Below are positions 14,334 to 24,594 of a DNA stretch of 64,000 nucleotides, piece after piece; position 1 is the first letter of the stretch, and every line of letters starts with the position of its first letter. Where the stretch lies: assembly GCA_028279725.1 (NCBI GenBank), contig JANQNE010000007.1, positions 99,406-163,405 of the forward strand, read 5' to 3'. A program made the translations under genes and the position numbers. The notes under the pieces were generated by a model. The model did no database searches. It was given only the letters and a program-made list of their open reading frames with translations, and was not told where the DNA came from. The stretch is from Candidatus Nanoarchaeia archaeon. GTDB taxonomy: Archaea; Nanobdellota; Nanobdellia; Woesearchaeales; JANQNE01.

Positions 14334-14666
14334 TTATGTTATTGGGATTCCTTGTTCAATTTCCTTATCTGGAGTTAGTAATACACATTCACTCTCATCT
14401 TCTTTTTCTGCACAAAGCAACATCCCTTCTGAGATTTCACCGCCAAACTTGGCTGGTTTTAAATTAATTAAGACAATTATTTTTTTATCTTTTAATTCAT
14501 CTTCGCTGTAATAAGGAACTAAGCTCGTTACTATTTGGATTGTCTTTTCTCCGATATCTACTTTTAATTTATAGAGTTTCTCAGTTTTTGGAACCCTTTC
14601 TACTCCAATTATTTTTCCAACTTTGATTTCCAATTTTTTCCAATCATCAAAATTTATTTGTTCCAT
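14334..14666 (-). CDS. tRNA-binding domain protein (Trbp111/CsaA/EMAP-like OB fold).
   Basis: 110 aa. KVGKIIGVERVPKTEKLYKLKVDIGE...ISEGMLL is the typical Myf-domain pattern. It is inserted between rpoD and L18e. Confidence 0.6.
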   Translation of the reverse strand: MEQINFDDWKKLEIKVGKIIGVERVPKTEKLYKLKVDIGEKTIQIVTSLVPYYSEDELKDKKIIVLINLKPAKFGGEISEGMLLCAEKEDESECVLLTPDKEIEQGIPIT

Positions 14667-15609: not shown

Positions 15610-16092
15610 TTATACTCTCCTCCCTCTTCTTCCGCCTTTCTTTCGGCATCCGTCATGAGGGATTGGTGTTACGTCTTCTATTACCCCTATTCTTAGTCCC
15701 ATTCTTGATAGTGCTCTTACTGCTGCTTGCGCTCCTGGACCTGGATTCATAGGACCGTTGTGCCCTCCAGGCGCCTTTATCTTTACATGTATAGCATTTA
15801 TTCCTTTGTCTCTTGCAACTTCAGCTGCCTTCTTAGCTGCAACCATCGCTGCAGTTGGGCTTGATTCAAGTCTGTCCTGCTTTACTACTTGCCCTCCTGA
15901 AGTTCTTGCGATTGATTCTGTCCCTGTTATATCAGTTATATGGATTATAGTATTATTATATGAAGTGAATATATGTGCGATTCCCCACCTTTGGTCAGGC
16001 CTGGGTCTTCTGTCAAACTGCCTTCTATCATTTCTTCTGTCATGAGGTCTCCTGTTGTCTGGCCTTCTGCTTGGAGGTCTTCTTTCTTCCAT
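15610..16092 (-). CDS. rps11: 30S ribosomal protein S11 (uS11) with an R/P/D-rich N-terminal extension.
   Basis: Core [23 protein letters not shown]...AAMVAA. N-terminus [36 protein letters not shown]. Confidence 0.85.
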
Positions 16093-16094
16093 TT

Positions 16095-16754
16095 TTATTC
16101 ACTTTTCTCCTCAGTTTTTTTCTCTTCCTTTTTCTCTGCTTTCTTCTCTTCCTTTGATTTCTCTTTCTTCGCTGGTTTTTTATCTTCCTTCTTGCCTTCT
16201 TTCTTCTTTGGCTTCTTCTTCTCTTCCTTTTCTTCCTTCTCGACTATCTTCCTTTCAGGGTGTTCAGGATCTGATAATGACGACGAAGGTATAAATCCTA
16301 TCATAGCCTCTTCTTCTGTTGTTATAAGATAAGATGGCTGCGTTATTATCTTTCCGTTTACTGTAACATGTCTGTGTGTTATAAACTGCCTTGCCTGATC
16401 GATTGACCTTGCCATTCCCTTGCTCAAAAGCTGTGTCTGAAGTCTCCTCTCCATAACATCTTTCAATTTCAATCCTAAAACATCAGCCAGCTGTGCTGTT
16501 GCAGGCAGTAATCCTAAAGATTGTAATTTGACAAGCATCTCCTGCTTCTCTTTATCAGCTTGCTTTGACCTTAATGCAACCAATTTCTTAGCATCATCAG
16601 CAAATCTCTTAAGGAAAGAATTCATCTTCTGGATCTCTTTCTTATTTCTGACCCCATACTCTTTCTTAATCTCTTTCTCTTCATCTATTCTCGTCTTTTG
16701 CCACGGATGTGTTGGCGTTGAGTACGTCTTCCTTCTTTTCCTTGGATCTCCCAT
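16095..16754 (-). CDS. rps4: 30S ribosomal protein S4 (uS4) with a K/E-rich C-terminal tail.
   Basis: N-terminus [20 protein letters not shown]. The tail is [22 protein letters not shown]... Confidence 0.85.
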
Positions 16755-17398: not shown

Positions 17399-17475
17399 GC
17401 GGCCATGGTGTAGCCTGGCTAGCATAGGGGACTGTGGATCCTCTAGGGCGGGTTCAAATCCCGCTGGCCGCCCCA
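17399..17475 (+). tRNA. tRNA-His(GUG), intronless, with G-1 and CCA encoded.
   Basis: Acceptor GCGGCCA / UGGCCGC, discriminator C, then CCA. A G immediately 5' (17398) can serve as G-1. D-loop AGCCUGGCUA. Anticodon stem-loop GGGGA-CUGUGGA-UCCUC. T-arm GCGGG-UUCAAAU-CCCGC. A T7 run follows. Confidence 0.8.
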
Positions 17476-17532: not shown

Positions 17533-18033
17533 TCATTTCTTAATTATTTTAGAAACAAAATAAGGCAGTACAAACCCAACAACATACACGATAGCTACTG
17601 GCAAGGGGTCTGTCGCAGGTATCTCTAAAAAAGCAACCTGTGAAGCAAGCACATTGGAGAATCTTACGATAATAAACACATTAACGACTGCAATTATCGG
17701 GATGAACATCCCTGCAATCAAATGATGATGTGTCTCCATATTATCTATATCTTTTATCAGTATGTTAAACAAAAAACCGAACAAAGCTGCAATCACAAAT
17801 ATTATAACAAAAAGAACAACTCCCTGCACCATAAACAAGAAAGGTATCAGAACAAAAGAGACAGCTATATTCCCTAACAATGTAATCACTAAAGCTGTCC
17901 AGTACACAAAAAGATCAAGCCCATGCTTATATTTTGTCTTCTGTATTCCAGCTTCTATTATCCTCTCTGCATGATCAATCTCATGCTCTAACCATCCCTT
18001 TTTCCTTAACTTGTGTTTTGTGTCCTCTTTCAT
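17533..18033 (-). CDS. Hypothetical integral membrane protein.
   Basis: Soluble N-terminus followed by 3-4 TM helices. The stop/start overlaps the MinD-like gene. Confidence 0.4.
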   Translation of the reverse strand: MKEDTKHKLRKKGWLEHEIDHAERIIEAGIQKTKYKHGLDLFVYWTALVITLLGNIAVSFVLIPFLFMVQGVVLFVIIFVIAALFGFLFNILIKDIDNMETHHHLIAGMFIPIIAVVNVFIIVRFSNVLASQVAFLEIPATDPLPVAIVYVVGFVLPYFVSKIIKK

Positions 18034-18803
18034 TTAGCAAAAAAATCAGAATACTCTAACTTTACCTCTTTTAATTCACCGCTTCCATCTTCATAAACTT
18101 GCCCGATTATCTTAGATGCCAGATACTTAAACTCCTTCCCTATGGCTGTATTTGGATAAGCATAAGCTACTGGCTGCTTTGTTCCTAACGATTCCAATAC
18201 TTTCTTATCATTGCTTATTGCAGCTATTATTGGTTTTTCAAGAATTGTCTCGATGTTCTGTAAGCTCAGCTCAAAACTTTCCCCTCTGACTTTGTTGATT
18301 ATGACTCCAAGCACATTAGCTCCGTTCTCCTCTGCAAAAGCTATTGACTTCAAAGCCCCTGTAACTGCATTAAGATCTGGTGTTGTAACAACAATAACAT
18401 CATTAACAGCTTTTATCACACCTCTTGCTTCCTCATTTATTCCGCCAGCACTGTCAACTAAAACGATCTCTGTCCTGTCCTTAAGCAGTTTGATATTATT
18501 CTTTAAGCTTTCAAAGTTATGGCTTCCTGCTGTCTTGTACTTTATATCAGAAGGTATGATCATTAACCCAGAAATATGCCTGTACGCAGTATTTGTTATA
18601 TCTCCTTTTCCATCAAGAACATCATTCAGGTCTATCTTAAAGCTTGGAATCCCCAAACTCAGCCCAAGATTAGGTGTTGCAAGATTCCCATCCACAGCAA
18701 CAACATGCCTTCCAAAATTTGTAAGGGTGATAGCTAGATTCAAAACACAAGTTGTCTTGCCAACACCTCCCTTACCAGATATAATCCCTATAAATCTAGT
18801 CAT
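18030..18803 (-). CDS. MinD/ParA-family P-loop ATPase.
   Basis: Deviant Walker A GIISGKGGVGKTT. The ORF track extends to 18866. The likely start is the MTRFIGIISGKGG methionine at about 18803, which leaves an 8-nt overlap with the upstream gene. Confidence 0.75.
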   Translation of the reverse strand: MTRFIGIISGKGGVGKTTCVLNLAITLTNFGRHVVAVDGNLATPNLGLSLGIPSFKIDLNDVLDGKGDITNTAYRHISGLMIIPSDIKYKTAGSHNFESLKNNIKLLKDRTEIVLVDSAGGINEEARGVIKAVNDVIVVTTPDLNAVTGALKSIAFAEENGANVLGVIINKVRGESFELSLQNIETILEKPIIAAISNDKKVLESLGTKQPVAYAYPNTAIGKEFKYLASKIIGQVYEDGSGELKEVKLEYSDFFAK

Positions 18804-19248
18804 TATACTTTTCCTCGATATACTCCACAAATGATTTGATATATTCAAAATGCTCATATACAACATCTATGTTTATTATCACTTCTTTTCCATCTACATC
18901 AGCAGTCATCTTCACGTGCCTCCTAAACTCCTGATCCTTCTCATAATTAGCTCTCATTATCTTCTTCAATGATTGTCTAAAATCTATTGCATCAACAATT
19001 TTTTTATCGTCTTTATATACATCTTTCACGATATTAAACCTCAATCCGCTCTGTGTAGGGACATCCTCTATCTTGCCTTCTTTCTTCGCTTTATCGATCA
19101 GCCCATCCATTATAAAATCGATGCAATTCATCAATCTTTCAACTACACTCCTAAGAACATCAACTGTACGGGTATACTTAAGGCTGACATAGATCAGATG
19201 ATCCATCCTTTTCAGCTCTTCCTTTGCATCATCTAAATAGTCCTTCAT
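18796..19248 (-). CDS. Hypothetical helical protein, member A of a tandem paralogue pair.
   Basis: 150 aa. KRMDHLIYVSLKYTRTVDVLRSVVERL aligns with the next gene's RKADHMISVTYPLVKDTKLLLAVMENI. A second block, EFRRHVKMTADVDGKEVII, matches EFVRNDKFVICDNDYNMKAI. Confidence 0.4.
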   Translation of the reverse strand: MKDYLDDAKEELKRMDHLIYVSLKYTRTVDVLRSVVERLMNCIDFIMDGLIDKAKKEGKIEDVPTQSGLRFNIVKDVYKDDKKIVDAIDFRQSLKKIMRANYEKDQEFRRHVKMTADVDGKEVIINIDVVYEHFEYIKSFVEYIEEKYND

Positions 19249-19714
19249 TCTTACTGGTGATGTTATGTATCTCTTCTATAAATAGCTTTGCTTTAGAGAT
19301 ATGGCTCTTTACCTCATCAACTGATATTGCCTTCATATTATAGTCGTTATCACATATCACAAACTTATCATTCCTGACAAATTCCACAGGGCTTTTCTTA
19401 TGCTGCTTTACTGTATTCTTTACTTCCTGGATAAGCTCAACATAGCTCTCATCTATCTTATGTCTCCTTGTGCATCTTGCCCTGAATATGTTGAACTTGC
19501 TGTCAAAATTATCCTGGAACCTAGGAATCTTCTTGAAAAGGAACTCATAATAAAGCAAAGAGCTCATCGTATTCGTCAACCCTAGAAATATGTTCTCCAT
19601 AACTGCTAAAAGCAGCTTTGTATCTTTGACTAAAGGATATGTTACAGAAATCATATGGTCTGCTTTCCTAATGTTAAGTTTGGCAGCCTCCCTCAACTCC
19701 TGGAATCTTTCCAT
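19229..19714 (-). CDS. Hypothetical helical protein, member B of the tandem paralogue pair.
   Basis: 161 aa. It overlaps member A by 20 nt. See the paralogy note above. Confidence 0.4.
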   Translation of the reverse strand: MERFQELREAAKLNIRKADHMISVTYPLVKDTKLLLAVMENIFLGLTNTMSSLLYYEFLFKKIPRFQDNFDSKFNIFRARCTRRHKIDESYVELIQEVKNTVKQHKKSPVEFVRNDKFVICDNDYNMKAISVDEVKSHISKAKLFIEEIHNITSKNEGLFR

Positions 19715-19759
19715 TTTAGAAGCTGTAAAGGCATTATTCTATAAATAATTTATGCAGAA

Positions 19760-20101
19760 TTATTGGCTTAATTCCATTATTGAAGCAGCAAGATCTCCTT
19801 CATTCTTTTCAAGAACTTCTTTAGCTTTTTCCTCACTCACACCTGTCTGCTCAACTACTGTCTTTATATCTTCTTCAGATATCTCAACTTTTATAGGCTC
19901 TCTTGGCAGCTCTTCAATATCTCCTGTAACTTGTAAAGTGTCCTGGCCCATCATATTCACTTTGCTTACACCAGGATTCCTGATTATAAGGTCAACTTCA
20001 GGTGTCTTTATGATAACTTCAGTTGCAGGAATATCTACCTGTGACATTCCCATCTTCTTCATCATCTGCTGCATCTTCCTTGGATTCATTCCTGGAATCA
20101 T
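19760..20101 (-). CDS. nac: Nascent polypeptide-associated complex protein (NAC alpha homologue).
   Basis: NAC domain (VIIKTPEVDLIIRNPGVSKVNMMGQDTLQVTG) plus a C-terminal UBA-like segment. Confidence 0.8.
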   Translation of the reverse strand: MIPGMNPRKMQQMMKKMGMSQVDIPATEVIIKTPEVDLIIRNPGVSKVNMMGQDTLQVTGDIEELPREPIKVEISEEDIKTVVEQTGVSEEKAKEVLEKNEGDLAASIMELSQ

Positions 20102-20102
20102 C

Positions 20103-20285
20103 TTATCCTAACATTGCACCGCCATAAGCGTGTAGAAGTATTATTATGATCATTACAACAATACACAGGACAATAACATGTCCTGGCTTTAATGTTATCT
20201 TGCTCTTATAATCTTCAAAATATCTGATCAGTCCGCCTCCGCTTGAAGGCATTGTCATCCTGTCTTTTACCATTTTCTTTCTCAC
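20103..20285 (-). CDS. secG: Preprotein translocase subunit Sec61beta (archaeal SecG).
   Basis: 60 aa. SSGGGLIRYFED motif followed by a single TM helix. Confidence 0.65.
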   Translation of the reverse strand: MRKKMVKDRMTMPSSGGGLIRYFEDYKSKITLKPGHVIVLCIVVMIIIILLHAYGGAMLG

Positions 20286-20656: not shown

Positions 20657-21769
20657 TTAAAAGGTTTTCGATAAAACCACAACCTTATACTCCTGCTTTC
20701 CACTCCAGACTAATCTCTCTGATTCTATCTTAAACTTCTTCCTCAAAGCAGTTTTCTTGAAAAGCTCGATATTCTTTGAAATTGCAACCATTTTCCCTTT
20801 CAAAATAAATTCAGCATTGTGAAAAAACTCATCATAAAGTTTCTGTATAACTGTCGGTCCAGCATGCTGTGTTATTATCGGTGGATTTGTTACAATAAGA
20901 TCAACTGCCCCTTTGTCAAGTTTAGCATCCAGCCATTTTGCTTCGATCCTAGAAAAATTTATCAGCTTCTCAACACCAGCGATCTTTGCATTGTTCTTTG
21001 CAGACTTGATATATCTAAGCTGGTCGTCAAAACCATTCAGTTTAATCTCCTTGCTCTTGTCAGTTTCCTTATCAATCTTATCAAAGAATTTGTCAAAATC
21101 AAACTTCTCAAAACATTTGAATCCTAAAAAAGCAAATTTATCCTTTTGATAAAAATTAACCGGAAACTTTGACTTATGCAGAGCAGCTTCAATTATTAAA
21201 GTTCCACTTCCGCAAAAAGGATCCAATACATTTTCTCCTTCAGCCAATCTATACACGCAATAAGCGACAGTTCCCTTCAGTGCATAAGGATGCTGAAAGA
21301 TCTTATACTGCCTTTTGCTCAGATCAATTCCAGAAAAATCAACTCCAAGATATGCTTTTCCTCCTGAGATATTGACAAAAAAAGTTACATCAGGATCTTC
21401 CAGTTTTACTTTAGCTTTTTTCCTGTCTAAGATAAATCCTCCAACTCTGGATTCAACATCTTGTGTTGATTCATCTCCATCATGCATGCATCTTACACAA
21501 AAAGTTGTATCCTTCCCAAACCATTCATCAATATTTATCTTCTCAACTGATTTCTTTATATCATCAACATCAGAATAATCTACTGTATCAATCAGATAAA
21601 GAACCTTAACAACAGATTGAGCTTTATAACAAAGAAGACAAAGATCTTCCAGCTTACAGTCAAATTCAACACAGCCATCAAGAACTTTCCCCTTAGCTCC
21701 TATCAGCTCAAAAATTTCTTTAGAACAAATATCTTCAAAACCCTTATGAGTTATAGCTAATCCTTTCAT
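20657..21769 (-). CDS. THUMP-domain class I SAM-dependent RNA methyltransferase (Trm14/TrmN-like tRNA m2G methyltransferase).
   Basis: SAM-binding [15 protein letters not shown]. Catalytic DLIVTNPP. N-terminal THUMP-like region. There is a 4-nt overlap with gyrA. Confidence 0.6.
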
Positions 21770-24594
21770 CTCCTTTTCATAGCTTTCTTTCTAAGCTCGT
21801 CTATTGAAGGAACATAGTCTGGCGTTGGCTTTGGATTGAAATCCTCTTCTTTATCTTCTTCAGCAGGTTTTTCCTTTACTTCCTCTGATGATGCTTCTTG
21901 AACTGGCTCTTTCTCTTCAACTTCTTTTCGTGGTTCTTCCTCTTTTTTTTCTTCAACAGGTTCTTCTGGCTGAATCTCTTCCTGCTTTGAATCTTCAACT
22001 GGCTGCTCTTCCTTTACTTCAGGCTGCAGTTCTTCATCATGTCCATTTCCATTCTCTTCTCCAGTTTCCTCTTTTTTTATCGCTTTATTCAGTTCATCTT
22101 CACTTTCAACAACAATCTTTGCAGCTGCAGCAACCTTGTCATCTCCGCCCATCTTCATAAGCCTTACTCCTTGGGTATTTCTTCCTATCTTCGATATTCC
22201 ATCAACTCTGGTTCTGATAACAATTCCCTGCCTGCTCATAAATATAATCTCGTTATCAGGATAGACTGCTTTAACTTCAACAACCTTTCCGTTCCTTTCG
22301 CTGCACTGTATGTTGATTACACCGACCCCACCACGACCGATAACTCTGTATTCAGCCATCGATGTCTGTTTTCCATAACCATTCTCTGTAATAGTAAGCA
22401 ACCTCTTCTTATCAGTTGCAATATCCATACCAATAACTGCATCCTTTCCTTTCAGATTTATTCCTTTTACACCTTTTCCAGTCCTTCCTATTGGCCTTAC
22501 ATCTTTTTCATCAAACCTAATTGCCATTCCATTTTCTGTAGCAAGAACAATATGCCTGCTTCCATCAGTAAGCTTAGCTGTTATCAGATCATCTCCTTCA
22601 TCTAAAGTTATAGCTCTTATTCCTCCTCTTCTGGGTTTCTTAAAATTAGAAAGTGGGGTCTTCTTAATTATACCCTGTTTAGTCGCTAACATCAAGAAGT
22701 GTTCTTCATCAAATTCTTTTACAGGAATAAACGCAGTAACACTTTCTTCCTTATCTAGTTCAACTAAATTAACTATTGGTCTTCCTTTAGCCTGTCTGCT
22801 TCCCTCAGGAATATTATAGACTTTAAGCCAATGTACATTTCCTTTGTCCGTAAATACTAAGATATAACTATGGGTTGACGCAACAAATATTTCCTCTACA
22901 AAATCTTCTTCTTTTGTTCCTGTTGCTATAACACCCTTTCCTCCTCTTGCCTGTAATTTGTAAGTGTTCATAGGAACTCTCTTAACATAACCAGCATGTG
23001 TAACAGTGACGACCATCTTTTCTTCTTCAATAAGATCTTCAAAATCAATCTCAACATCTTGTCCGCCTTCCATGATCTGTGTCTTTCTTTCATCGCCATA
23101 CTTTTCTTTCATATCCTCAAGTTCTTTTTTGATTATTTCCAGTATCTTTTGCTCAGAAGCTAAGATCGCTTTTAATTCTTCAATTAATTCCAACAATCCT
23201 TTATGTTCTTCTTTGATTTTATCTTGCTCTAAGTTAGTTAACTTCTGTAATTTCATATCTAGGATAGCCATCGCCTGCTTTTCACTTAATTCATACTTGG
23301 CGATTAATCCATCTCTTGCTTCAACTGTTGATTTAGATTGTTTGATCAGCTGGATCGCATTGTCGATATCATTCAAAGCTATGATTATACCTTCAAGAAT
23401 ATGCGCTCTTTCCTCAGCCTTAACCAACTCATACTTTGTTCTCCTTCTTACAACTTCTTTTCTGTGATCTATAAAGTTCTGTATTATTTCTTTAAGGTTC
23501 AGTACTTTTGGTTCTCCATCAACCAAAGCCAACAATATCATACCTACAGTTTCCTGCATTCTTGTATGTTTATACAATTGATTAAGAACAATGTCAGGAT
23601 TTGCATCCTGCCTTAATTCAATAACTATCCTCATTCCTTCTCTGTCGCTTTCATCTCTAAGATCAGATATTCCTTGTATCTTTTTATCTCTTACAAGATC
23701 AGCAATCTGTTCTATAAGGTGGGCTTTATTCACCATAAATGGAATCTCAGAAACAATTATCCTCTGCTTATTCTTCATCTCTTCAACATTTGTCCTTGCT
23801 CTTACCAAAACTTTTCCTTTTCCTTTAGAATAAGCACTAAGGATTCCGCCAGTTCCGTAAATAATTCCTCCAGTAGGAAAATCAGGACCTTTGACATTCT
23901 CAACAAGATCCATCGCAGTTACATCAGGATTGTCAATAACTCTTATCGTTCCGTCAATAACCTCGGTCATGTTATGTGGTGGAATTGTCGTAGCCATGCC
24001 TACTGCAATACCACTGCTTCCATTAATCAAAAGATTTGGAATCTTTGAAGGAAGAACAGAAGGCTCTTTCAGGCTATTGTCAAAATTAGGGACAAAATCA
24101 ACAGTGTCCTTATCAATATCAACTAACATCTCTTCAGCAATTCTAGATAGTCTTGCCTCAGTATACCTCATTGCAGCTGCATTATCTCCATCAATTGAAC
24201 CAAAATTTCCCTGACCGTCAACTAAAGTATATCTTAAAGAAAAATCCTGAGCCATCCTGACCATGCTGTCATAGACAGCTGTATCACCATGCGGATGATA
24301 CTTTCCCAGCACCTCTCCAACAATCCTTGCAGATTTCTTAAAAGGCTTGTTATGCATCATTCCCATGCTGTGCATCGCAAAAAGAATTCTTCTGTGAACT
24401 GGTTTTAATCCATCTCTTACATCTGGCAAAGCTCTGCCAACTATTACACTCATAGAATAGTCCAGATAGCTGCTCTTCATCTCATCTTCCACTACCCTTT
24501 GGACTACTTTTTCTTCTGTATTTTGGCCTTTATTTTGCTCTGGTTGGCTATTTTCCTGGCCTTCAATTTCCTTATTTTCAGGGTTTTCAGACAT
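21766..24594 (-). CDS. gyrA: DNA gyrase subunit A with a long acidic C-terminal tail.
   Basis: [25 protein letters not shown]. The active-site Tyr region and a beta-pinwheel CTD. The last roughly 120 aa are an E/K/P-rich low-complexity tail. Confidence 0.9.

Follow-up and report, generated by a model that had tools for sequence, protein, structure and literature searches.

In Woesearchaeota-type archaea, a gene for a MinD-type ATPase can be found chained to genes for two small helical proteins and a membrane protein, and the question raised by such a locus is whether the ATPase is the centre of the system or an addition to it. The locus considered here lies in a 64,000-nucleotide stretch of DNA (the window) from a tiny DPANN (Woesearchaeota-type) archaeon. 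An ORF check bears out the sequence-only reading made earlier, in which four genes on the minus strand were described as overlapping from one to the next: paralogue B (19229–19714, 161 aa), paralogue A (18796–19248, 150 aa), MinD (18030–18803, 257 aa), and a membrane protein, Mem (17533–18033, 166 aa). The B and A genes overlap by 20 nt, A and MinD by 8 nt (ATGACTAG), and MinD and Mem by 4 nt (ATGA). The longest mechanical ORF for MinD reaches 18866, and alignment with homologues favours the ATG at 18803 (MTRFIGIISGKGG). An HMM search found one copy of the module within the 64-kb window. A TATA-like element, TTTATA, sits on the minus strand at 19740–19745, ~28 nt upstream of the B start codon, and is a possible archaeal promoter from which a leaderless B-A-MinD-Mem transcript could arise. 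Upstream on the same strand are two conserved neighbours recognised by Pfam, NAC (19760–20101) and Sec61beta (20103–20285, Pfam Sec61_beta). We regard both as genomic context and claim no functional membership in the module for them.

The assignment of the ATPase made from sequence is supported. The deviant Walker A motif GKGGVGKTT occupies residues 10–18 and contains KGGxGK[ST] with the signature lysine, Pfam finds the CbiA, ParA, and AAA_31 domains, and the best-scoring family by far is TIGR01969 (minD_arch), at 187.5 bits just under the cut-off of 201.75. The best PDB sequence matches are archaeal MinDs, 1hyq (E = 9.5e-35), 1g3q, and 1ion, with full-length similarity. The KGGVGKT motif is thus common to this MinD and to those of Archaeoglobus fulgidus (MinD-1, 1hyq) and Pyrococcus furiosus (1g3q); what sets it apart from known archaeal MinDs is that its gene is embedded between a gene for a protein of predicted HEPN fold (discussed below) and a membrane-protein gene. 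About half of the MinDs at related loci have a C-terminal extension (20 of 38 are at least 245 aa, the window included), and this extension may be comparable to the membrane-targeting tails of other MinDs. Many of the extended proteins end in an amphipathic-looking ...F..IL.KLGLKK tail; the protein in the window ends in ...KLEYSDFFAK. The hydrophobic moment of the tails, 0.56, is not clearly higher than the background of 0.47 ± 0.13. A bacterial Min system (MinCDE) does not fit, with no match to MinC or MinE families among the genes neighbouring MinD and with a HEPN, not a MinE or MinC, fold predicted for A and B. The archaeal Dip divisome-positioning system (DipABC) was also rejected: its components are the GTPase DipA, the DUF2073 protein DipB, and the Zn-ribbon protein DipC (PMC13228585), and by Pfam none of the four proteins has these domains.

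Conservation of the locus was judged in 66 loci from related species, each with enough flanking sequence. Mem follows A in 60 of the 66, at a median distance of 11 nt, whereas 33 contain MinD and 41 contain B. A and Mem thus make up the conserved core, with B and MinD as additions that vary by lineage, MinD being accessory. With 1147 homologues of A and 261 of B (E ≤ 0.01) alongside this adjacency of Mem to A, all four are, as judged by homology, real genes and not chance ORFs. The 33 loci from which MinD is missing keep A; presence was scored at the locus only, and MinD could sit elsewhere in such genomes. A whole large clade has A and Mem only, and high-GC relatives retain B, A, and Mem with no MinD within 4–5 kb, Mem remaining nearby even when it is on the other strand. 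Linkage of all four genes across relatives, which had been proposed as a check, therefore holds for A and Mem and is only partial for MinD and B.

The surroundings are conserved too. The order GyrA-THUMP-Sec61beta-NAC-[B]-A-[MinD]-Mem-...-S13 is syntenic and single-copy, with NAC upstream in 57 of the 66 loci. The spacer from NAC to B is ~30–85 nt in relatives with B, and that from NAC to A has a median of 15.5 nt where B is absent. The module occurs in at least 593 GTDB species, and the phylogeny of A tracks locus architecture. Inheritance of the locus is vertical, at a site between Sec61beta-NAC and the S13 ribosomal operon, and its single-copy state, synteny, and spread over these species point to a housekeeping role.

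Can MinD still be the engine of a positioning system, with A and B as adaptors or ATPase regulators in the role of MinE, ParB, or McdB and Mem as landmark or cargo? The gene arrangement speaks for it in part. Where MinD is present, its gene sits precisely between those of A and Mem; in 27 of 35 such relatives it overlaps the A gene, by 4 or 8 nt, and the gap to Mem is short, which supports an operon and, with it, the translational coupling proposed from sequence. A distant low-GC relative also has the B-A-MinD arrangement (locus L084), and B and MinD co-occur beyond expectation (odds ratio 4.5, Fisher p = 0.01, uncorrected for phylogeny). ParA/MinD genes usually adjoin those of their partners or cargo, and the tails described above may resemble a membrane-targeting sequence in many of the MinDs. 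The range of protein and nucleic acid cargos served by these ATPases is wide (PMC11407121). Against this arrangement stand the persistence of A and Mem at the 33 loci that are missing MinD, the clade with A and Mem only, and the high-GC relatives, which together show that A and B are not obligate partners of MinD. Moreover, A and B have no basic N-terminal peptide of the type that typically stimulates ParA/MinD ATPases, and the dense invariant polar cluster of A (see below) exceeds what an adaptor would need. We consider a MinD-centred system possible but doubtful; its distribution across relatives argues against placing MinD at the centre, as one would naturally do.

If A and Mem form the core, the nature of A becomes the main issue, and B bears on it as a relative. 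A direct BLASTP comparison of A with B gives no significant similarity (E = 0.88). At the level of families, however, an hhalign comparison aligns the two over 153 columns with 95.6% probability (E = 1.1e-8), and the HMMs cross-match reciprocally in the window (E = 2.5e-6 and 8.4e-6). The predicted secondary structures have the identical order H-H-h-H-E-E-E-H, and the models have the same predicted fold. A and B are genuine remote paralogues, as had been proposed from two shared sequence blocks; these blocks correspond to the aligned D-H motif of helix 1 and the E-[FY]-x-R motif. Across the joint A and B alignment, His17 is invariant and Asp16 and Glu107 nearly so.

Fold searches with the predicted structures match both A and B to the HEPN superfamily, which ranks clearly above generic bundles at non-significant Foldseek E-values (0.16). 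HEPN proteins are known for RNA cleavage or binding and for nucleotide binding, and are not known as partners of MinD. A match to a family unrelated to MinD function had been named in advance as evidence against a MinD partner pair, and the HEPN match is in part such evidence. The earlier statement that A and B belong to no nameable family stands for sequence families: Pfam and NCBIfam have no family for A, B, or 30 members of the A family, PADLOC has no defence model matching A, B, or Mem, and PDB searches with A, B, and joint A and B profiles return no HEPN chain at E ≤ 10. It does not stand for the fold, as the two are not fold-orphans. Weak matches to VWA_N, AvrM-A, DUF2070, and RecX_HTH1 in scans of A, B, and Mem are far below the cut-offs and were set aside.

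The canonical HEPN motif, Rx4-6H, located at the end of helix 3 or the start of the helix 3–4 loop, is absent from both proteins. In its place, A has an invariant E-[YF]-R-R-H ~10 residues past helix 3, with Arg and His adjacent and no conserved Arg at −5 to −7. Families with variant motifs, namely AF0298, AbiV, and PaREP1, are documented within the superfamily (PMC3710099), so the absence of Rx4-6H is compatible with membership. By their predicted fold, A and B would represent a sequence-orphan, motif-variant branch of HEPN. The closest known type is HEPN-T/UPF0332 (A. fulgidus AF0298, 2hsb; HepT toxins, 5yep and 8xdj), with which A and B have in common a four-helix up-down bundle of ~120–150 aa and an additional element between helices 2 and 3. 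A also resembles this type in having conserved Arg and His residues in the connector between helices 3 and 4. However, neither A nor B has detectable sequence similarity to any HEPN profile, and E-[YF]-R-R-H in A and E-F-x-R in B take the place of Rx4-6H. Further differences are the extra invariant D-H of helix 1, the KYTRT loop, a three-stranded sheet between helices 3 and 4, and a setting that is housekeeping and syntenic rather than mobile, with no MNT partner.

The region of HEPN proteins that holds the catalytic motif is the connector between helices 3 and 4, and it is here that the invariant R-R-H of A falls. Two motifs of A are invariant: ELKRxDHLIYVSLKYTRTVDV runs from helix 1 into helix 2, and E-[YF]-R-R-H-V-x-M lies in the connector. 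An alignment of 30 sequences has 23 invariant columns, rich in Arg, Lys, His, Asp, Glu, Thr, and Tyr, and the motifs hold in a set of 268 sequences as well. The invariant residues include a basic/His cluster (Arg14, Asp16, His17, Lys24-Tyr-Thr-Arg-Thr28, Arg38, Glu107, Arg109, Arg110, and His111). Such a pattern is what one expects of a site for catalysis or ligand binding, which A may have. Some distant homologues of A carry Lys/Arg-rich tails of 60–250 aa, consistent with binding of a polyanion such as nucleic acid. B has a degenerate motif set: it retains A-D-H in helix 1 and E-F-x-R, is without the KYTRT and RRH motifs of A, and has no His at the site matching R-R-H. Its best match is AF0298 (PDB 2hsb) of the HEPN-T family. 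The AF0298 type deviates from Rx4-6H and was proposed to use an alternative His (PMC3710099).

These residues also weigh on whether the bundle does any chemistry. It could serve solely for dimerisation, as a structural part of a membrane complex (for instance, in envelope biogenesis, division, or host contact), a reading that would account for the missing Rx4-6H, for the lack of any sequence link to HEPN families, and for a strict partner that is a membrane protein. The 23 invariant columns of A are mostly charged or polar, however, whereas inactive HEPN domains are expected to be without conserved residues of this kind (PMC3710099). The Lys/Arg-rich tails and the ranking of HEPN above generic bundles likewise argue against it, and we judge a non-enzymatic scaffold unlikely.

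Mem itself has four TM segments predicted from hydropathy, preceded by a basic N-terminus of ~40 aa that is predicted to be cytoplasmic and contains an L..KGWS..EI motif. A word-indexed homologue search with Mem gave four proteins, and the family alignment was built from the related loci instead; in it, the loop DIEHLExKHH is conserved. Neither the family nor profile scans match Mem to Pfam, NCBIfam, or PDB entries, and weak sub-threshold matches hint that its N-terminus may be a small three-helix motif.

A gene for a HEPN-fold protein directly beside one for a SIMIBI (ParA/MinD-type) ATPase has a precedent. Such a dyad of HEPN and ParA/Soj ATPase genes, the MAE_18760 family, was reported from bioinformatic analysis and predicted to be a toxin-antitoxin system (Anantharaman et al. 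2013, PMC3710099), which tempers the proposal that the locus is a new kind of MinD module. By analogy with this dyad and with MNT-HEPN, A could be a HEPN RNase toxin neutralised by MinD (or by B or Mem), and the fold of A, the direct pairing of its gene with that of MinD through the 8-nt overlap, and the small, overlapping genes all fit. What does not fit is obligate pairing or a mobile, patchy, or multi-copy spread: in the 66 loci and at least 593 species, one copy of the locus occupies a fixed housekeeping site, the phylogeny of A follows architecture, and the putative antitoxin MinD is missing from half of the lineages that keep A. There is no adjacent MNT gene and no PADLOC defence match. 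A is also highly conserved, whereas toxins as a rule evolve rapidly according to the same survey (PMC3710099). Fixed synteny, vertical inheritance, and the loss of MinD lead us to give a toxin-antitoxin or defence function the least credence. The MAE_18760 family is bacterial and has canonical Rx4-6H, whereas the ATPase here is archaeal, MinD-type, and optional, the constant partner is the membrane protein Mem, there is a degenerate second HEPN paralogue, and inheritance is vertical.

The reading that we prefer, tentatively and at a probability of roughly 40%, is that the locus encodes a lineage-specific (Woesearchaeales/DPANN) membrane-associated HEPN-type dimer that acts on RNA or a nucleotide and to which MinD is accessory. 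At its core would be the small HEPN-fold protein A and the four-TM protein Mem, which may dock A through its cytoplasmic N-terminal domain and the DIEHLExKHH loop. A would act as a homodimer when alone and as a heterodimer with B where B is present, B being a putative regulatory or structural pseudo-subunit. The invariant basic/His cluster of A would bind, and possibly cleave, RNA or a nucleotide at the membrane. Where encoded, MinD may serve as an ATP-dependent dimer that assembles, positions, or switches the complex on the membrane.

A, B, and Mem have been without any annotation to date, and literature on HEPN with MinD or Woesearchaeota and on conserved hypothetical clusters of DPANN yielded no description of the module. 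Its retention at a fixed site among translation and secretion genes by at least 593 species of Woesearchaeales and related DPANN, whose genomes are tiny, suggests that it is probably important for their cell biology. The HEPN assignment provides a first testable handle in RNA or nucleotide binding, with defined residues to mutate. Should MinD turn out to regulate a HEPN complex, archaeal MinDs, whose partners are poorly known, would gain a new type of cargo or partner, and the pairing of HEPN with a ParA-type ATPase would have a use other than as a toxin system. In Haloferax volcanii, MinD4 and MinD2 are reported to influence the motility machinery, cell shape, and CetZ1 localisation; no HEPN-type partner was found in the literature searched.

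A more specific role can be imagined, which we hold to be very unlikely in this form: A/B on Mem would serve DPANN archaea as a housekeeping RNase, or as a factor that binds RNA or ribosomes, tethered to the membrane and governed by MinD as an ATP-driven switch. Its targets would be ribosomes engaged with the translocon or mRNAs directed to the membrane, in functional analogy to the RNA surveillance carried out at membranes by Ire1. In many lineages its genes would share a transcript with Sec61beta and NAC, and MinD would control where or when it is active. The KEN domain of eukaryotic Ire1 and HEPN-TM fusions such as STY4199 (PMC3710099) are alike in concept, a HEPN dimer at a membrane. Here, in contrast, the HEPN-like protein and Mem are separate gene products, and their interaction is suggested by the linkage of their genes.

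Four minus-strand genes make up the operon: B (19229–19714, 161 amino acids), A (18796–19248, 150 amino acids), a MinD-type ATPase (18030–18803, 257 amino acids), and the membrane protein Mem (17533–18033, 166 amino acids). The mechanically called MinD frame reaches 18866, and homologue alignment favors MTRFIGIISGKGG as the N terminus. Read from the strand, B and A overlap by 20 nt (stop to start), A and MinD by 8 nt (ATGACTAG), and MinD and Mem by 4 nt (ATGA). The 20-nt overlap (19229–19248, minus strand) is the modal arrangement across related loci L001–L080, and the ATG of A sits within the conserved C-terminal Lys-Asn-Glu codons of B (AAG AAT GAA), which puts this stretch under dual-coding constraint. 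A TTTATA element (19745–19740, minus strand), about 28 nt 5′ of the B start, is compatible with a candidate archaeal promoter giving a leaderless transcript. A short inverted repeat, GAAATTT-AGAA-AAATTTC, directly follows the Mem stop codon, and a plus-strand tRNA-His (GTG) gene (17399–17475) runs toward the operon's 3′ end from the other side.

The ATPase carries the deviant Walker A motif GKGGVGKTT, matches the Pfam CbiA and ParA families, and scores 187.5 bits against TIGR01969 (archaeal MinD), slightly below the cut-off of 201.75; among solved structures it is closest to 1hyq, 1g3q, and 1ion, all archaeal MinDs. Twenty of 38 MinDs from these loci, the window's included, are at least 245 residues long, and many of the twenty have a C-terminal extension of about 25 residues with an F..IL.KLGLKK-like end that, as a sequence, resembles the MinD membrane-targeting helix. 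The hydrophobic moment of these tails does not stand clearly above background, and the tail of the window protein, KLEYSDFFAK, is atypical.

BLASTP detects no similarity between A and B (E = 0.88). Profile-profile comparison, from one 30-sequence alignment per family, relates them with 95.6% probability (E = 1.1e-8, 153 columns), the HMM of each family picks up the other family's ORF within the window (E = 2.5e-6 and 8.4e-6), and confident AlphaFold2 models of A (pLDDT 87, pTM 0.82) and B (pLDDT 90, pTM 0.85) have a common element order, H-H-h-H-E-E-E-H. These results support A and B being remote paralogues. H17 does not vary anywhere in the joint alignment, and D16, L51, E107, and F140 come close to invariance; the two shared blocks described in the sequence-only reading are its helix-1 D-H and E-[FY]-x-R. 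Because the ORFs (an exact match to the six-frame list), the start/stop overlaps, the MinD/ParA motif, and the paralogy were all found, that observation is borne out in full.

The families comprise 1147 (A) and 261 (B) homologues; nearly every one comes from a Woesearchaeota/Nanoarchaeota metagenome bin, and Pfam domains are absent from all of them. A and B have no match among Pfam, NCBIfam, or PADLOC models, and sequence searches retrieve no PDB chain, even when A and B are combined in one profile. The earlier statement that the blocks match no nameable family thus stands for sequence, but not for fold: in the Foldseek comparison it had proposed, the top rank goes to HepT toxins (TM ~0.5–0.6, probability up to 0.96), with E-values that are not significant (0.16). 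In both models an additional helix separates core helices 2 and 3, an insert that distinguishes HEPN domains from other four-helix bundles (Anantharaman et al. 2013; PMC3710099). We therefore file A and B as putative HEPN domains, with superfamily membership by fold only; part of the module's apparent novelty, its unnameable paralogues, thereby comes down to a known fold.

The canonical Rx4-6H motif is not present in A or B. In a 30-sequence alignment, A has 23 invariant columns, mostly charged or polar. Its invariant motifs are ELKRxDH...VSLKYTRTVDV, running from helix 1 into helix 2, and E-[YF]-R-R-H in the connector from helix 3 to helix 4. B keeps only A-D-H and E-F-x-R of these and adds an HKKSP motif of its own. 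HEPN families with alternative active-site residues are documented, the AF0298 type among them, and HEPN domains that are truly inactive are stated to have no conserved charged residues (PMC3710099). On the basis of fold, motif conservation, and these variants, we file A and B as a predicted new sequence-orphan, motif-variant HEPN-fold family, in which A probably binds a ligand or acts as a catalyst, with B as its degenerate partner. That A and B form a purely structural scaffold is, given such conservation in A, unlikely. HEPN-T/UPF0332 domains share the fold, but their motifs and context differ.

Scanning one genome for each GTDB species with a degenerate pattern showed A to be encoded in at least 593 species, and 80 loci were retrieved. 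Annotation by HMM and phmmer shows a near-constant order, GyrA–THUMP methyltransferase–Sec61beta–NAC–(B)–A–(MinD)–Mem–...–S13. Of the 66 loci with sufficient flank, Mem is present in 60, NAC in 57, B in 41, and MinD in 33; 26 have both B and MinD, 15 only B, 7 only MinD, and 18 neither. B and MinD are thus associated (odds ratio 4.5, Fisher p = 0.01, with kinship of loci ignored). All junctions are tight: B overlaps A in 40 of 46 loci (mode 20 nt), and in 27 of 35 loci A and MinD share 4 or 8 nt; the median A-to-Mem gap in MinD-less loci is 11 nt. Of the four-gene block in the sequence-only reading, A and Mem are the conserved part, and B and MinD vary between lineages. In a neighbor-joining tree of A, one large clade has A and Mem only, all four genes occur together widely, and forms with just B or just MinD are scattered, a distribution that implies a stable A-Mem core around which B and MinD were repeatedly gained or lost. 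Translational coupling favors the MinD-centered positioning module of the sequence-only reading, but half of the loci are without MinD, and this reading is unlikely. The Sec61beta and NAC genes (19760–20285, minus strand) lie 1 nt apart, and at 57 of 66 related loci the two stand ahead of the module. The median NAC-to-A gap of 15.5 nt in B-less loci suggests that A and Mem are co-transcribed with Sec61beta-NAC.

Distant loci follow a similar pattern: a low-GC contig (L084) has B-A-MinD, and in bins of high and mid GC (L081, L086) a B-like gene overlaps A, Mem is two genes off on the other strand, and MinD is absent within 4–5 kb. A in the latter bins and a few others has a Lys/Arg-rich C-terminal tail of 60–250 residues (P0289, P0293, P0299, P0348; L081 5001–5915, L086 4001–5188), of low complexity (e.g. 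repeated KKKVxKK), which resembles nucleic-acid-binding tails. Many of the GTDB or TPA records with this Woesearchaeales-type locus and synteny (L007, L015, L017, L018, L028, L029, and others) bear the title "uncultured Methanosarcinales archaeon" and are probably mislabelled bins.

Mem, which matches no family or solved structure, has a basic, predicted cytoplasmic N terminus of about 40 residues with a conserved L..KGWS..EI motif, four hydrophobic segments, a conserved, predicted cytoplasmic DIEHLExKHH loop between TM2 and TM3, and further conserved motifs (GN, LIPFL, FG.LF, IP..A..N, LPY). In our best-supported, still tentative reading (probability roughly 0.4), A would form a HEPN-type dimer, A/A or A/B with B as the degenerate subunit, docked on the cytoplasmic face of Mem, and its D-H/KYTRT/E-x-R-R-H cluster would bind, and perhaps cleave, RNA or a nucleotide. 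Where MinD is encoded, it would play an accessory part, as an ATP-dependent dimer that binds the membrane and assembles, positions, or gates the complex. The analysis shows the structure of the genes, the paralogy, the predicted fold, which residues are conserved, and the phyletic pattern; dimerization, contact with Mem, the ligand, and what MinD does are inferred.

The predicted HEPN-ParA/Soj dyad has the same gene pairing as A-MinD, but it belongs to another domain of life, has another motif, and is an obligate pair. A toxin/antitoxin function was proposed for the bacterial MAE_18760 dyads (PMC3710099); for A as toxin and the ATPase as antitoxin it is very improbable, as synteny is fixed, inheritance is vertical, A is strongly conserved, MinD is lost without loss of A, and PADLOC gives no matches. 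Archaeal MinDs share the ATPase, and the literature searched yielded no HEPN partner for them and no published description of the B-A-MinD-Mem module. The likeness of our proposed Mem-docked A dimer to membrane-tethered HEPN RNases (Ire1, HEPN-TM fusions) is no more than an analogy, and the Dip positioning system recently described in archaea is unrelated. The module is conserved and wholly unannotated in DPANN, and it yields a concrete, testable hypothesis.

Several housekeeping proteins encoded nearby (15610–16754 and 21766–24594, minus strand) have charged extensions: a K/E-rich C-terminal tail on S4, an R/P-rich N-terminal extension on S11, and a long acidic E/K-rich C-terminal tail on GyrA. 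Between the RpoD and L18e genes, a 110-residue ORF (14334–14666, minus strand) looks, from its sequence read by eye, like a protein made of a single tRNA-binding domain of the Trbp111/CsaA type.
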